IMG/VR virus record: IMGVR_UViG_2671180429_000007
Direction: 5' to 3' (one strand)
Length of the DNA stretch: 25,499 nucleotides
Origin: a virus
Lineage: Duplodnaviria > Heunggongvirae > Uroviricota > Caudoviricetes
Shown: positions 1,046 through 6,565 of the stretch, one piece after another
Layout of the letters: every line of letters starts with the position of its first letter
Position numbering within the stretch: the first letter of the stretch is position 1
The notes under the pieces: model-generated
Database searches by the model: none
What the model was told of the DNA's origin: nothing
The model's input: only the letters and a program-made list of their open reading frames with translations
Position numbers and translations under genes: made by a program

Positions 1046-1417
1046 TTGTGGAGAAAGTTGATGCGTGATATGTATGAAGTAATGGATCGTTGGGGAGCTT
1101 GGGCTGCTTCAGACAATAGCGGAGTGGACTGGCAGCCGATAGCGGCTGGTTTCAAGGGACTTTTACCTCATGGCAAAAAGTCACGGATTCAGTGTGATGA
1201 TGACGAAGGCATCATGATAGACAGTTGTGTGGCTCGGTTGAGAAGGTATAAACCAGAGGAATATGAGCTCATCATCGCCCACTTTGTTATCGGTATCTCA
1301 TTACGCACTATTGCGAAGAAGAGAAAATGCTCTGATGGCACAATTAGGAAGGAACTGCAAACTGCAATGGGGTTTGTTGACGGCTGTTTAGCAATGTTAG
1401 CTTATAGTATGGCATAA
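1046..1417 (+). CDS. Q-type late-gene antiterminator (small Phage_antitermQ-like form)
   Basis: 123-aa ORF immediately after the DUF968 gene. Motifs (RWGAWAA...WQPIAAGFKGLLP...C..D....C..) match my recollection of the small antitermination protein Q family of lambdoid prophages. Position upstream of the lysis cassette fits. Confidence 0.65.
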   Translation: MWRKLMRDMYEVMDRWGAWAASDNSGVDWQPIAAGFKGLLPHGKKSRIQCDDDEGIMIDSCVARLRRYKPEEYELIIAHFVIGISLRTIAKKRKCSDGTIRKELQTAMGFVDGCLAMLAYSMA

Positions 1418-2611
1418 AAAATAAAATAGATTTACTGCCGATTTTTCAAAAAAGACTGGGAACTGTTTATATCCAACGTAAATAAGGCCTCCATAAAACA
1501 TGGCTGATGCGAGATATTTAACAGTTCTCATCCTTTTTTTAGCTTTATCAATCAAACCTGTAATGCTACTCTTAATACTATCTGCATTATCTTTGATTTC
1601 TTTATTTTCTTCAAACTTTAAATACTTATCGAAAGCGGACTCCACTCGAGAACGTAAGTTGTCGAATGTTTCATTGAATATCTCAATAGAAATGTAATTG
1701 ACTTTTTTTATCATCCAAAGTCCTGCGATAATCAATATTGCTTCGGTTGTTTCATTAGCCTTCACTAAGCCACCAGCAGCTATTAATGCACCGGGAATAG
1801 TCAATGCTTTTGTCTGATTAGATGATATGAATTCGTTAATTTTACTCGTGAACTCAAGATTTTTCTCATCGAGTTCGTTAAGAATTTTATTTACAGAAAA
1901 CCTCTTTGTGTAAATCTCATATAGTTCATCATATTTTTTCCTGACGAGTTCAGTAGAGTTAAGCAAGTCAAAGAAATTGAACGTACCATTTGCTTTAAAT
2001 ACTTCGTTTATGGCTGAGCGTATAACGAGCTTGCGCTCGCTTTTGTGTAAATCATTGATTTTTATTGTGTCGAGAAGCTCCTTTATAATTTCATATTTAA
2101 GAGACGAGTTCGATAAGCGATTAATCTCGCTATATTGTAAAAAATGCGTGAGTTCGACTGTATAACTTTTGTCTTCATTGGTGAAAAATAAGACAGAGCA
2201 GTCACTGTTATGATGATCAGCAATTAATGAAAGGATATCTTTCCACATAAAGAAAATATGGATTTTTTCGATGCTTTCATTCTTAGAAGTAGGGAGTATT
2301 AACGGCGTTCCGATGATATAATTTTTCGGAAGAGCGTTTTGGGTGTTTACTCTAGACCAAAAAGACTCAACATTCTCATAAATTATAGCGTCATCCCAAG
2401 ATGAAGCTTGGCGATCTAGCCAAATTTCATTATTTTCGATGCAGGTTGTTGCCTTTTTATAACCTATAGATTGTAACAGTCTAATTATTTCAGAACTATT
2501 TACAATAACAATGCTTTCTTCAAGACTTATGACAGTGTAGTAGCCCTCAACTCTGCTTGAGGCTCCGTTAATAATCTGCGCTAATCTTGATAAGTCATCA
2601 GCAATTGTCAT
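1397..2611 (-). CDS. Hypothetical protein with C-terminal hydrophobic (likely membrane) segments; second gene of AT-rich two-gene moron
   Basis: 404-aa ORF, visibly AT-rich, K/N/I/E-rich. Start codon at 2611..2609 lies 2 nt after the stop of the upstream gene (2616..2614). Hydrophobic stretches ALTIPGALIAAGGLV, AILIIAGLWMI and YLASAMFYGGLIYVGY near the C-terminus. I recognise no family. 3' end overlaps the Q gene 3' end by 21 nt, convergently. Confidence 0.6.
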   Translation of the reverse strand: MTIADDLSRLAQIINGASSRVEGYYTVISLEESIVIVNSSEIIRLLQSIGYKKATTCIENNEIWLDRQASSWDDAIIYENVESFWSRVNTQNALPKNYIIGTPLILPTSKNESIEKIHIFFMWKDILSLIADHHNSDCSVLFFTNEDKSYTVELTHFLQYSEINRLSNSSLKYEIIKELLDTIKINDLHKSERKLVIRSAINEVFKANGTFNFFDLLNSTELVRKKYDELYEIYTKRFSVNKILNELDEKNLEFTSKINEFISSNQTKALTIPGALIAAGGLVKANETTEAILIIAGLWMIKKVNYISIEIFNETFDNLRSRVESAFDKYLKFEENKEIKDNADSIKSSITGLIDKAKKRMRTVKYLASAMFYGGLIYVGYKQFPVFFEKSAVNLFYFLCHTIS

Positions 2612-2613
2612 TA

Positions 2614-3789
2614 TTAGCTGTCTCTATATCTTTTGAGTTCATCATAATTTGCCTGACTCAATTTTATCACAATTTCGCATTTGTTGTCAGTGAGAATTAC
2701 AGGCTTATTTGACTTTTCGTCTCCAATAGCTCCACGCATTATTTTCAACTTAAAATTATTGTCGTTATCTGCCACTTCAATTGTAAGCGCGCTTTCAGCT
2801 GCTTTAGGAGTTGGTTCAAATTGAGGGTCAATCTGGAAACCATTAAGATTAACAAAATCGACAAACGTTCCCTTACATTTGTGTGAATCAGTCAGGCATG
2901 AGTCAATTATTTTTGAAATATCCTCTATCTTAACGGACTTATTTCCGTGTTTATCTTTTGATTTTTTTTCCAGTAAGGATTTAACTTCATTGTCAATAGT
3001 ATCACGCAGTACACGACCGAGTGAGTTTTTACTAGCAAAAATATCTATAGCACTGAATAATTGCTGAATGCTTCTTTTATTGTCCGAATCATGTCGGCAA
3101 CCTAATGAGTCTTTGAAAAAATCGCTTTTAGATTTACCTTGCAAGAAATGTACATATGAGTCACCCTTGTTTTCTGGATAACTGGCTTCGAATAAAGTTA
3201 AATCGAACATCGCAGCCTGCCGTAAGGCATCGGTATTAATTGGATTTAATCTTGTTGGGGTCAACTTATCCGAATCAAAGTCATAGGCGCTTTGTTTATC
3301 AACCATTACGATTAGAAGTTTCCCCAAATCCTCTGGTTCGGTAGACTTATAGTGGATGAAAACAACGCTCCCCCCCTGAAGTTGGGCAACTCTCGATTCG
3401 TTATTAGCATTATGTTTAAGCTTCTCTATTATAGCTCTAGATAAATCAATGAATTCATTATTTTTATTAATGTATTTTTTTAGGATCGTAGGAATGGATG
3501 AAGGGTTGTGATCTGAGTCTAGGAAGTTATGAAATTTGTTTTTTCGGCTAAATTTTTTCTCAATTCTGGTTATGAATTCAGATGTGACTTCATTTTTTAG
3601 ATCCCAAACTTCACCTAATCGATAATCAAATGCTCTTGAATCATTTTTTTCAAGATTTGCTGTTACAGCACCAATAGGAAAGTACGATTGTTTGCCCAGC
3701 ACTACAACATGAGGCGTGGCACCGCATTTATCGCAAGCTACAGTTGGGTCGTCAAGAACATTGCCACATTCTAAACAAGTTATATCCAT
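2614..3789 (-). CDS. Zinc-ribbon protein with NdpA/YejK-like (NA37) nucleoid-associated domain; first gene of AT-rich two-gene moron
   Basis: 391-aa ORF, AT-rich. N-terminus has CxxC...CxxC (CLECGNVLDDPTVACDKCG). Central block GGSVVFIHY...LLIVMVDKQ...AMFDLTLFE...YVHFLQGKSKSDFFKDSLG resembles my recollection of E. coli YejK/NdpA (GGFVLFCHY...ARIDLTEWE...[22 protein letters not shown]). Needs HMM confirmation. Confidence 0.6.
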   Translation of the reverse strand: MDITCLECGNVLDDPTVACDKCGATPHVVVLGKQSYFPIGAVTANLEKNDSRAFDYRLGEVWDLKNEVTSEFITRIEKKFSRKNKFHNFLDSDHNPSSIPTILKKYINKNNEFIDLSRAIIEKLKHNANNESRVAQLQGGSVVFIHYKSTEPEDLGKLLIVMVDKQSAYDFDSDKLTPTRLNPINTDALRQAAMFDLTLFEASYPENKGDSYVHFLQGKSKSDFFKDSLGCRHDSDNKRSIQQLFSAIDIFASKNSLGRVLRDTIDNEVKSLLEKKSKDKHGNKSVKIEDISKIIDSCLTDSHKCKGTFVDFVNLNGFQIDPQFEPTPKAAESALTIEVADNDNNFKLKIMRGAIGDEKSNKPVILTDNKCEIVIKLSQANYDELKRYRDS

Positions 3790-4887: not shown

Positions 4888-5321
4888 GCAGAGTCACCGC
4901 GATTATCTCCGCTCTGGTTATCTGCATCATCGTCTGCCTGTCATGGGCTGTTAATCATTACCGTGATAACGCCATGACCTACAAAGAGCAGCGCGATAAA
5001 GCCGCATCCATCATCGCTGATATGCAGAAGCGTCAACGTGATGTAGCAGAACTCGACGCCAGATACACAAAGGAGCTTGCTGATGCTAACGCGACTATCG
5101 AAAGTCTCCGTGCTGATGTTTCTGCTGGTCGTAAGCGCCTGCAAGTCGCCGCCACCTGTGCAAAGTCAACGACCGGAGCCAGCAGCATGGGCGATGGAGA
5201 AAGCCCAAGACTTACAGCAGATGCTGAACTCAATTATTACCGTCTCAGAAGTGGAATCAACAGGATAACCGCGCAGGTTAACTACCTGCAGGAATACATC
5301 AGGACGCAATGCCTGAAATGA
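4884..5321 (+). CDS. Rz: i-spanin Rz
   Basis: 145-aa ORF whose N-terminus [30 protein letters not shown] matches lambda Rz. ATGA overlap with the endolysin stop. Confidence 0.9.
5077..5268 (+). CDS. Rz1: o-spanin Rz1 (lipoprotein), embedded in Rz in the +1 frame
   Basis: 63-aa ORF entirely inside Rz. Signal peptide with lipobox-like VVSAC followed by a proline-rich segment ([13 protein letters not shown]), as in lambda Rz1. The true start may be an internal Met. Confidence 0.7.
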
Positions 5322-5356
5322 TCGGGCGATGAAAACCAAAAAAACAGGAGCAATAC

Positions 5357-5632
5357 ATGACTAAGCTTTATCACCGCATCTCAGCTTTTCTCTCTGGGTG
5401 CTGGGCGTTTATCACGTCTATTTCGTTCGTCATCTTTAGTTTCGGTAGCACAGCATGCTCGCTTAGTCGGGGTCTGTGGCGTGCTATTTCAGCACTAGCG
5501 CCGAAATTTTTACCTGAAAAGGTTGTTTGGCGAATTGTAGAGCGAATGTGTAGTGAGAGCGTTCGCGAGAAGATTAACGTATTTGGACGTCATCCTCGAA
5601 ATACAGGCGCATTGTGCAGTTCGTTACTGTAG
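5357..5632 (+). CDS. Hypothetical small protein, possible membrane protein
   Basis: 91-aa ORF with a strong AGGAG RBS about 7 nt upstream and an N-terminal hydrophobic segment (ISAFLSGCWAFITSISFVIFSF). No family recognised. Confidence 0.35.
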   Translation: MTKLYHRISAFLSGCWAFITSISFVIFSFGSTACSLSRGLWRAISALAPKFLPEKVVWRIVERMCSESVREKINVFGRHPRNTGALCSSLL

Positions 5633-5750
5633 TCATTACAAAGCCCATCTTTGGGTTTGGTTTGTAATTTCGCTGCTGCAATAATCACCAGAAATATGGC
5701 ATTGTAATTGGTGGTCATATGTCATACCCATCAATTACAAAGGAGCAGAC

Positions 5751-6002
5751 ATGTCATCTACAAAATTAGTTAAAACTATCCTTTTCCATGGAGATAATAA
5801 ATATGAAGTTTATGCAACCTCCGAGTACGCTGACGTAGATAGAATCATTCATTACAAGTTACGCTCATGTAAAAACACAGATGGTTCAGATGGCAAGTCT
5901 GAATCTATATGGGTTGTATATAATCCTGCTGTTCAACTACCGGATGATCTGAACTACAAAAAAGTTAGCAACATAGCTCCTTATCTTGAAAAGTTACAAT
6001 AA
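5751..6002 (+). CDS. Hypothetical small protein (AT-rich moron gene)
   Basis: 83-aa ORF, AT-rich, AGGAG RBS upstream, followed by tandem terminator hairpins. No family recognised. Confidence 0.5.
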   Translation: MSSTKLVKTILFHGDNKYEVYATSEYADVDRIIHYKLRSCKNTDGSDGKSESIWVVYNPAVQLPDDLNYKKVSNIAPYLEKLQ

Positions 6003-6021
6003 ACTTCCTTTTCCACATGCT

Positions 6022-6048
6022 AAAAGCCTCGTATTCGCGGGGCTTTTT
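6022..6048 (+). terminator. Rho-independent terminator
   Basis: AAAAGCCUCG-uauucg-CGGGGCUUUUU: stem of about 6 GC-rich pairs (one U.G) plus flanking A/T pairs, then a T-run. Lies 20 nt after the stop of the 5751..6002 ORF. Confidence 0.5.
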
Positions 6049-6060
6049 ATTGTCATTACA

Positions 6061-6087
6061 AAAGCCACTCCCTACAGAGTGGCTTTG
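6061..6087 (+). terminator. Second hairpin, possible bidirectional terminator
   Basis: Perfect 10-bp inverted repeat AAAGCCACTC / GAGTGGCTTT with 6-nt loop CCTACA, followed by TTTG. Confidence 0.4.
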
Positions 6088-6214
6088 ATAATGGTTTATA
6101 CCCTACACGGGATAACTTAACTGATATCCCTTTTAACGGATAAACGGAGCCAACAATGGCAGAGAATGTCGGCATTATGGCAGTTAAATTTGGATAAATC
6201 GGAGATTAGTACAT

Positions 6215-6565
6215 ATGCCGCCACGAATCCCGAAAGCCTGCCGTGCTCGAGGTTGCCGTAATACCACCACTGACCCGTCAGGCTATTGCGAAAGCCACAA
6301 AAGCGAAGGCTGGAAGCAATACAAACCTGGACAATCCCGTCATCAGCGCGGCTACGGTTCGAAGTGGGACAGTATCCGCGCGCGTGTCCTGAAGCGTGAC
6401 AAAGGCCTGTGTCAGTTATGTCTGCGTTCTGGTGTGGTGCGTGAGGCGAAAACTGTTGACCACATCATCCCTAAAGCGCATGGCGGCACTGATGCTGACA
6501 GTAATCTGCAGAGTCTGTGCTGGCCGTGTCATAAGGCGAAGACGGCCCGTGAACGGTTAAAGTGA
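6215..6565 (+). CDS. HNH endonuclease (terminase-associated)
   Basis: 116-aa ORF with Cys-rich N-terminus and HNH motif (VDHIIPKAHGGTDADSNLQSLCWPCHKAK). Lies immediately upstream of the terminase genes, as in HK97-like phages. Confidence 0.85.
   Translation: MPPRIPKACRARGCRNTTTDPSGYCESHKSEGWKQYKPGQSRHQRGYGSKWDSIRARVLKRDKGLCQLCLRSGVVREAKTVDHIIPKAHGGTDADSNLQSLCWPCHKAKTARERLK

Follow-up and report, generated by a model that had tools for sequence, protein, structure and literature searches.

A moron-like cassette and its junction hairpins between the lysis and packaging genes of an Escherichia coli lambdoid prophage

Introduction

Lambdoid phages carry accessory genes known as morons, a concept of Juhala and Hendrix whose definition is quoted in PMC2629481. 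The IMG/VR virus record IMGVR_UViG_2671180429_000007, whose whole stretch of 25,499 nucleotides (nt) is called the window below, is an Escherichia coli lambdoid prophage and holds a gene that resembles them: an open reading frame (ORF) of 83 amino acids (aa), lodged in a variable slot between the lysis and packaging modules and bracketed by two hairpins, H1 on the left and H2 on the right. The cassette is like a moron in its patchy presence, its position in the late operon, its AT-rich composition, its own intrinsic terminator (T1) and its dispensability. The moron definition requires, in addition, a promoter of the gene's own; the long conserved 5' leader of the cassette and the hairpin in front of it lie outside that definition.

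Short sequences at gene boundaries have been connected with phage mosaicism in the boundary or linker sequences of Susskind and Botstein and in the analysis of phage HK620, as summarised in PMC3233612. The junction hairpins are alike in being a short conserved sequence at gene boundaries that occurs with many combinations of flanks, and differ in being a structured element that shows compensatory evolution on the sense strand. This compensatory evolution argues for a function of the hairpin's own, beyond that of a patch of homology. A described locus of related layout is the right end of phage HK97, which carries a KilA-N gene, a small ORF, a hairpin, a filler of 198 nt, a second hairpin and a DUF2560 leader fused to the gp74 HNH gene. 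It is like the window in the two hairpins, in the fusion of the DUF2560 leader to an HNH gene and in the position before cos and terminase, and differs by the filler in place of the 83-aa cassette and by another ORF in front of H1.

In the early mRNA of phage T7, RNase III processing hairpins between the cistrons leave protective 3' hairpins on the transcript. The junction hairpin is similar, as an analogy only, in being an intergenic stem-loop with an internal loop and conserved flanks in a polycistronic phage transcript; with a helix of about 15 bp it is shorter than typical RNase III substrates. The attC sites of integrons are imperfect hairpins at the 3' end of gene cassettes, with conserved ends, a variable middle and a strand-specific constraint. 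Here the junction hairpin differs in being much smaller, in forming no arrays and in having joints that do not fall at a fixed nucleotide, and no integrase lies beside the slot within the annotated neighbourhoods.

The reading preferred here, with a probability of about 0.7, is that a moron-like cassette occupies a recombination-prone slot and is bracketed by structured junction hairpins that serve both as punctuation and as a recombination patch. The cassette is of an ordinary, already known kind; the hairpin is the novelty, within the known idea of the boundary sequence.

An optional gene in a variable slot

The region was compared with 50,697 phage records, 5,426 complete E. coli genomes and IMG/VR. 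Of the 5,426 E. coli genomes, 17 contain the DNA of the cassette (5672-6048) and about 2,500 the flanking junction; parts of the surrounding 1-kb region are found in 2,583 and the whole in 16. The phage records match only the flanks (5300-5630 and 6025-6165) and leave the middle unmatched, and the DNA from 6025 to 6165 matches 105 of these records, as well as about 2,500 E. coli genomes, at 93-98%.

Between the same left neighbour, the gene orf91, and the same right neighbour, the leader of a DUF2560 gene, different inserts are found, with at least six states of occupancy besides the 83-aa gene. With both flanks shared, the slot may be empty or may hold the 198-nt filler, the 83-aa gene, a 56-aa ORF, a DUF551 gene, a Gp49_66 gene, or a 57-aa ORF together with a Gp49 gene (the Gp49/Sf6-gene-66 family); the filler, with the second hairpin, fills the slot in HK140 and HK97. 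The same slot of phage Huey carries genes that the depositors labelled anti-CRISPR (an annotation label only), one of them where a Gp49/Sf6-gene-66 gene sits in other loci.

An artificial empty-site query gave a single uninterrupted match in E. coli MB07011 (locus L081), which reads orf91-TAG-TC-ATTACAAAGCCCATCTACGGGTGGGCTTGATAATG-GCTTATACCC...: one hairpin without an insert, followed by the DUF2560 leader. The IMG/VR contig L027 is a second empty site, again with a single hairpin, so that close relatives differ by whether this position holds the gene. Compared with the empty site, the window has its left breakpoint within the H1 loop (after ...AAAGCCCATCT) and is homologous again from GATAATGG of H2 onward. 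Against L009, where the homologue (87% aa identity) lies in a context like that of Shiga toxin (Stx) phages, homology extends from the hairpin upstream of the gene to just past the T-run of T1. Phage Ayreon (MF807953, 43931-44010; L225, 681-760) has GTCATTACAAA, 11 unrelated bases, and then T1 and H2 without the 83-aa gene; on the simplest reading this arrangement would be a deletion scar of the cassette. Several other phages also match 6025-6144 (T1, H2 and leader) at 95-98% without the gene.

An earlier note on this DNA had proposed that the gene was acquired independently of its neighbours, and had asked whether related prophages differ by its presence or absence precisely between the repeats that flank it. 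The genome counts and the empty sites agree with the proposal, and the polymorphism does map to the repeated motif: neither uniform conservation nor repeats that match by chance are seen in the relatives compared. In the comparison with L009, homology stops on the right at the end of T1 and not at the repeat. Sequence comparison thus supports the view that the 83-aa gene was acquired independently and is dispensable cargo, lodged between lysis and packaging genes.

A family of junction hairpins

The repeat that brackets the gene has the form GTCATTACAAA(A)GCC and occurs as GTCATTACAAAGCC at 5632-5645 and as GTCATTACAAAAGCC at 6052-6066. With at most one mismatch, GTCATTACAAA has two matches in the window where 0.41 are expected, a count that 6 of 100 shuffles reach, and ATTACAAAR has three where 0.43 are expected, reached in 2 of 100. 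On window statistics alone the repeat is weakly significant; the comparative data indicate that it is real. Both copies listed in the earlier note are present, the first with a length of 14 nt and not 15; they are the arms of hairpins that are general to many phages, not brackets specific to this cassette. The third copy placed near 5730 also exists (ATTACAAAG, 5734-5742), but belongs to another inverted repeat, in the leader of the gene (5702-5714 / 5728-5740), of which it forms the 3' arm; it has no part in the bracket and is not conserved in distant homologues. As for the two tandem terminators read downstream of the gene, T1 is canonical, and the second is the hairpin H2 at 6054-6093, which a terminator scan did not accept and whose tail, UUUGAUAAUGG, is not U-rich.

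The first repeat forms the 5' arm of H1 (5634-5670; -13.2 kcal/mol, z -3.2), and the second that of H2 (-20.5 kcal/mol, z -6.25). H2 is built as CATTA / CA / AAAGCCACTC-loop-GAGTGGCTTT / GA / TAATG and is recognised by the covariance model of the family, R1, with 57 bits (E 1e-13). H1 is a decayed copy, since R1 gives it 12.5 bits (E 0.27). Its 5' arm is identical to that of relatives up to the left breakpoint, and its 3' arm (TTTGTAATTTCG) is of the type found upstream of the gene in L009.

In every relative a hairpin of this family follows orf91, and often another precedes the DUF2560 leader, with one fold for all variants. The family hairpin is 36-44 nt long; its outer stem is (C)ATTA/TAAT(G), followed inward by the invariant 2x2 internal loop CA/GA and by an inner stem of 9-10 bp that covaries freely. 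ATTG/CAAT is a compensated variant of the outer stem. Inner stems include AAGCCCA/TGGGCTT, the pair seen in H2, GAGACCA/TGGTCTC, GAAGCYCTTC/GAGGGGCTTC and GAGCCAC/GTGGCTC. Among 20 variants, 98.3% of the cells are paired, against 34-51% with slid partners, and 7 of 15 pairs are compensatory. When R1 was run on 48 related 6-kb loci, its matches fell at this slot only. A pattern scan of IMG/VR by the flanks alone gave at least 120 stretches; among the matches listed, 107 of 121 have the exact fold, and 77 distinct model-aligned copies are again 98.3% paired (33-52% when slid), with 13 of the 15 pairs compensatory. None of 500 shuffles reaches any of these measures.

The 77 copies contain 135 cells with a G.U pair, 123 of them with the U on the 5' arm, against 20 cells without a standard pair. 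A G.U pair is an A.C mismatch on the other strand, and the constraint therefore lies on the sense strand of the late operon. This favours an element that would act as RNA, or as single-stranded DNA of the same strand. Many members have no U-tract (for example ...GGGGCTTCGATAATG, or those ending CUUCGAUAAUG), so the family is not defined by intrinsic termination. Upstream of the hairpin, among the matches listed, TAG is enriched at -4 to -2 (55/144) and G occupies -2 in 111/144; usually 0-2 nt separate the hairpin from the stop codon of the ORF in front of it. A locus has two to three hairpins at most.

Type-1 copies occur in HK97, HK620, Sf6, ST64T, phage L, ES18, SPN3UB and Stx phages. Rfam 15 has no match in the whole window at the gathering score, and permissive thresholds gave only sub-threshold chance matches in 5300-6300; a full-text literature search with hairpin sequences returned no relevant paper. 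The family is widespread in enterobacterial temperate phages and apparently undescribed. Three other identities were considered and set aside. The ATG in GATAATG as a coupled start codon would open ORFs of 2-44 aa that are variable and unrelated. On inspection of the sequence, ATTACA and GATAAT lie 22-26 nt apart, which does not suit the -35/-10 pair of a standard sigma-70 promoter, and no -35 element stands 17 nt upstream of GATAAT. The known prophage small RNAs Pas, AgvB, AsxR and STnc100 are located elsewhere, in the Q-holin region (bioRxiv 10.64898/2026.05.13.724894).

Joints at the hairpins

With flank classes defined by 40 nt on each side, 243 hairpin instances fall into 78 upstream and 76 downstream classes, in 113 combinations. 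Eleven upstream classes are joined through the hairpin to the DUF2560 leader. Two unrelated left flanks, the ends of orf91 and of an 85-aa ORF, are each found with one and the same set of three downstream classes; all six combinations of two left and three right flanks exist, which requires exchange at the hairpin. Among the ORFs next to hairpins are spanins, Bro-N, many ORFans, Gp49_66, DUF2560, PhageMetallopep, small terminases, HNH and a tail tube protein. The same short sequence is thus found with multiple unrelated left and right flanks, as expected of a boundary sequence, and the joints fit the mosaicism model of a 'short conserved boundary sequence' (PMC3233612). The Red and RecET enzymes are able to recombine diverged or very short homologies (PMC2327257). 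The deletions obtained in experimental evolution of Sf6 were considered as well; they lie in another region.

Leader, protein and terminator of the cassette

The gene has the strong ribosome-binding site and the AT-rich composition ascribed to it in the earlier note. The Shine-Dalgarno (SD) sequence AAGGAG lies at 5740-5745, 5 nt before the ATG. At 34.5%, the GC content of the gene is below that of the window (52%), of the lysis genes (50%) and of the packaging genes (55%); across 5600-6199 the GC content is 0.36-0.38, against 0.47-0.58 on either side. Between deeper pairs of homologues, the ratio of nonsynonymous to synonymous substitutions (dN/dS) is 0.04-0.26, and the ORF is therefore a real coding gene.

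The protein matches the profile of PHROG 16949, a family without known function, over residues 1-83 of 83 (E 5.6e-56). Pfam, NCBIfam, PADLOC and the PDB sequence profile gave no match, fold searches found neither a recognisable fold nor a defence or anti-defence protein, and tblastn of the protein against the 50,697 phage records matched nothing; the anti-defence, toxin or host-modulating role once suggested for the product finds no backing in these searches. The family is very small, with five clusters at 90% identity, and a hidden Markov model search of 1.84 billion representatives returned nine matches with E <= 0.001, two of which, the long P0011 and P0013, are translated tandem repeats and were discarded. 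The AlphaFold2 (AF2) model has a predicted local distance difference test score (pLDDT) of 88.8, and the product is small, soluble and rich in beta structure, with purifying selection acting on it.

Homologues in E. coli, Atlantibacter and IMG/VR prophages always lie between lysis and terminase genes, beside at least five different packaging modules, and every one examined has a strong terminator downstream. All of those with enough upstream sequence have a hairpin and then an xATAAT box upstream. The hairpin is of the CATTA/TAATG family in most of them, even where identity has fallen to 40%, and further stems appear, GCAGGCA/TGCCTGC among them; L006 and L094 have another GC-rich stem in its place. 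In Atlantibacter sp. RC6 (L083, 2402-2629), a 75-aa ORF about 370 nt upstream of the homologue aligns weakly with the family (28% identity) and shares a motif LLKTI..KFEIY; on this resemblance it may be a tandem paralogue. A stretch downstream of the homologue in L007 (4340-4420) resembles a tRNA T-arm (GGTTCAAATCC); ARAGORN finds no tRNA there.

The leader consists of a -10-like TGCAATAAT (5677-5685), the motif ATGGCAT (5696-5702), a stem (5702-5714/5728-5740) and the SD sequence. This layout of about 85 nt (xATAAT, ATGGCAT, stem, AAGGAG) is kept in homologues down to 40% aa identity, and RNAalifold recovers the apical stem alone. The upstream ATGGCAT is complementary to the start-codon region (ATGGCA/ATGTCA) in the window (5696-5756) and in L006, L083, L094, L095 and L097-L103. 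Where the start codon is GTG, CCAC or GCCAC stands in its place, with the look of a compensatory pair. The leader pairs with the SD and the start codon in several lineages, and anti-SD sequences that pair with the SD (CTCCTT, CTTTCC or TTTCTC) are likewise seen in several. General sequestration of the SD by the leader was rejected, as the probability of a paired SD is 0.72-1.0 in several lineages and only 0.05-0.21 in the window, L009 and L006. Folding predictions suggest that the leader may fold back to control translation in a register that varies by lineage, with the SD of the window predicted to be free. At the other end of the cassette, T1 (6022-6048) has an 11-bp stem with five GC pairs (-14.7 kcal/mol, z -4.5) followed by the T-run TTTTTATT, and provides the factor-independent terminator of its own that a moron has.

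Surroundings of the slot

The region from 5300 to 6300 is 100% identical to several chromosomes of O103:H2 and other Shiga toxin-producing E. coli, and 99.6% identical to E. coli 042. The features in and around the slot are collected in Table 1; a small terminase subunit of the P27 family and the large terminase subunit follow downstream of the HNH endonuclease gene.

Table 1. Features of the window in and around the variable slot
Feature	Position	Strand	Basis or remark
Q antiterminator	1046-1417		gene order from E. coli 042 annotation and Pfam
Holin	4081-4407		gene order from 042 annotation and Pfam
GH24 endolysin	4411-4887		gene order from 042 annotation and Pfam
Rz	4884-5321		gene order from 042 annotation and Pfam
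orf91, left conserved flank of the slot	5357-5632	+	phrog_34701, E 7.6e-54
H1, decayed junction hairpin, left joint of the cassette	5632-5671	+	fold and R1 covariance model
5' leader of the 83-aa gene	5672-5750	+	layout conserved in homologues
83-aa cargo gene	5751-6002	+	soluble; four beta-strands and a C-terminal helix
T1, canonical intrinsic terminator after the 83-aa gene	6022-6052	+	terminator scan and folding
H2, intact junction hairpin	6052-6095	+	folding and R1 covariance model
Leader of the DUF2560 gene, right conserved flank of the slot	6096-6155	+	matches in phage records and E. coli genomes
DUF2560 remnant (MAENVGIMAVKFG*)	6156-6197	+	comparison with L002-L005
HNH endonuclease, first gene of the HK97-type packaging module	6215-6565	+	PF01844, E 1.1e-16; 042 annotation

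The left neighbour, orf91, is encoded by 66 IMG/VR loci at 59-100% identity; its N-terminus is hydrophobic and its C-terminus (DWRIVERMCSESVREKINVFGRHPRNTGALCSPLL) almost invariant. It ends in a TAG stop codon 2 nt ahead of the hairpin, and the annotation of E. coli 042 by the Prokaryotic Genome Annotation Pipeline (PGAP) leaves this ORF out. The position right after Rz suggests that it encodes a lysis-associated membrane protein.

On the right, a 9-codon mini-ORF, MVYTLHGIT*, begins in the hairpin's GATAATG and extends into the DUF2560 leader, which also has a small stem GGGATA...TATCCC followed by TTTTAACGG. The DUF2560 remnant comprises 13 codons, and its homology to full-length DUF2560 genes stops after ATGGCAGAGA, where a second recombination joint leads to the HNH/terminase module. 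HK97 and HK140 have a similar, longer N-terminal DUF2560 fragment fused before the HNH gene.

Further upstream, an AT-rich stretch between the Q antiterminator and holin genes (1397-3789) carries two large ORFs on the minus strand, one of 403 aa without a Pfam match and another, of 390 aa, in which Pfam recognises a nucleoid-associated domain like NA37/YejK (E 1e-23). The Q-holin interval of E. coli 042 is much shorter and has no annotated gene, and the stretch therefore looks like another inserted cargo module, possibly of a defence type.

Weighing the explanations

On the preferred reading, the cassette consists of leader, 83-aa ORF and T1, with holin, endolysin, Rz and orf91 of the lysis module on one side and the DUF2560 remnant, HNH, TerS and TerL of the packaging module on the other, and would be read from the Q-antiterminated late transcript, possibly also from a weak promoter of its own. 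The hairpin would punctuate this transcript at the RNA level, where it could stabilise 3' ends, mark a processing site or terminate weakly. It would also serve as a patch for homologous or short-homology recombination by host RecA or by phage enzymes of the Red/RecT type, since it offers a short stretch of nearly identical sequence where the modules on either side are otherwise unrelated. Cassettes could in this way be swapped, inserted or deleted, and the left crossover in the window would lie within the loop of H1.

Several observations weigh against parts of this reading. Where orf91 and the DUF2560 leader are both shared, ordinary recombination in the long flanks would suffice, without any special joint, and selection for intact genes would also concentrate the surviving joints at gene ends. 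The occurrence of T1 and H2 without the gene in Ayreon leaves the unit that travels together ambiguous. The sequences behind the pairing percentages had been chosen for their conserved flanks, and the alignment of 77 copies was fitted to the model. That the hairpin forms and acts as RNA is predicted from its sequence, and a role at the DNA level, on the same strand, is also conceivable. As for the moron proposed in the earlier note, the polymorphism, the terminator and the deviant composition all agree with it, and a promoter of the gene's own is a possibility: a consensus scan upstream of the gene finds no sigma-70 promoter, and the -10-like xATAAT box, invariant across homologues, stands with poor -35 regions in all of them. 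The most likely role of the protein, that of a dispensable factor in phage-host or phage-phage interaction and not of a virion or lysis component, is a guess.

The hairpins might instead be ordinary intrinsic terminators, possibly bidirectional, that insulate morons, their shared flanks reflecting descent by duplication and their clustering at junctions being a by-product of selection. The depositor of phage Ayreon annotated the H2 element as 'terminator', type-1 and type-2 copies have A-tracts and short U-runs, late operons of the P22 type contain intra-operon terminators (PMC8022706), and a canonical terminator, T1, lies directly upstream of H2. That same position would make a second terminator redundant, however; H2 did not pass the terminator scan, many family members lack a U-tract, and the conserved parts (ATTA/TAAT, CA/GA and the G at -2) are not needed for termination, whereas the GC stem is what varies. 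We consider this explanation unlikely, though more credible than the two that follow. That the repeats match by chance, the 83-aa gene being a normal conserved member of the phage lineage, is close to negligible in view of the empty and alternative states of the slot, the 17 genomes against about 2,500 and the strong covariation of the hairpin; the mild surprise of the repeat within the window, where 6 of 100 shuffles do as well, is what speaks for it.

A dedicated DNA recombination system could also be imagined, in which the hairpin is a site like attC, or the substrate of a transposase or HNH nuclease acting on the single strand, with precise insertion and excision of cassettes. The conserved flanks around a variable centre, the single copy at the empty site and two at the occupied one, the asymmetry between strands, the combinatorial joints exactly at the hairpin and the stop codon often found inside or next to it (the TAG in 55/144) would all suit such a site. 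With at most two to three copies per locus and no arrays, no recombinase consistently nearby and an HNH gene that is here part of the terminase module and missing from many hairpin loci, a system of this kind is improbable. Its joints also lack a fixed point of cleavage, the left crossover being in the loop and the right one, against L009, at the end of T1, and scars such as that of Ayreon look like imprecise deletion.

Implications

A bolder possibility is that the hairpin is a new functional element that actively organises both module exchange and transcript punctuation in enterobacterial temperate phages. We hold this only tentatively, with the odds well against it. As a site of specific processing or of protein binding on the late mRNA, the element would create recombination hotspots through its conservation; or else a recombination activity might use it as a strand-specific site on the DNA. 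If true, this would supply a concrete, mutable sequence for the debate on phage mosaicism between 'boundary sequence' and 'illegitimate recombination plus selection'. As a recombination hotspot or an RNA processing signal, the hairpin would give an experimental handle on the mosaic joints of lambdoid phages and on the punctuation of their late polycistronic transcripts. It also marks a slot from which new accessory genes, among them candidate anti-defence and exclusion factors, may be harvested systematically.

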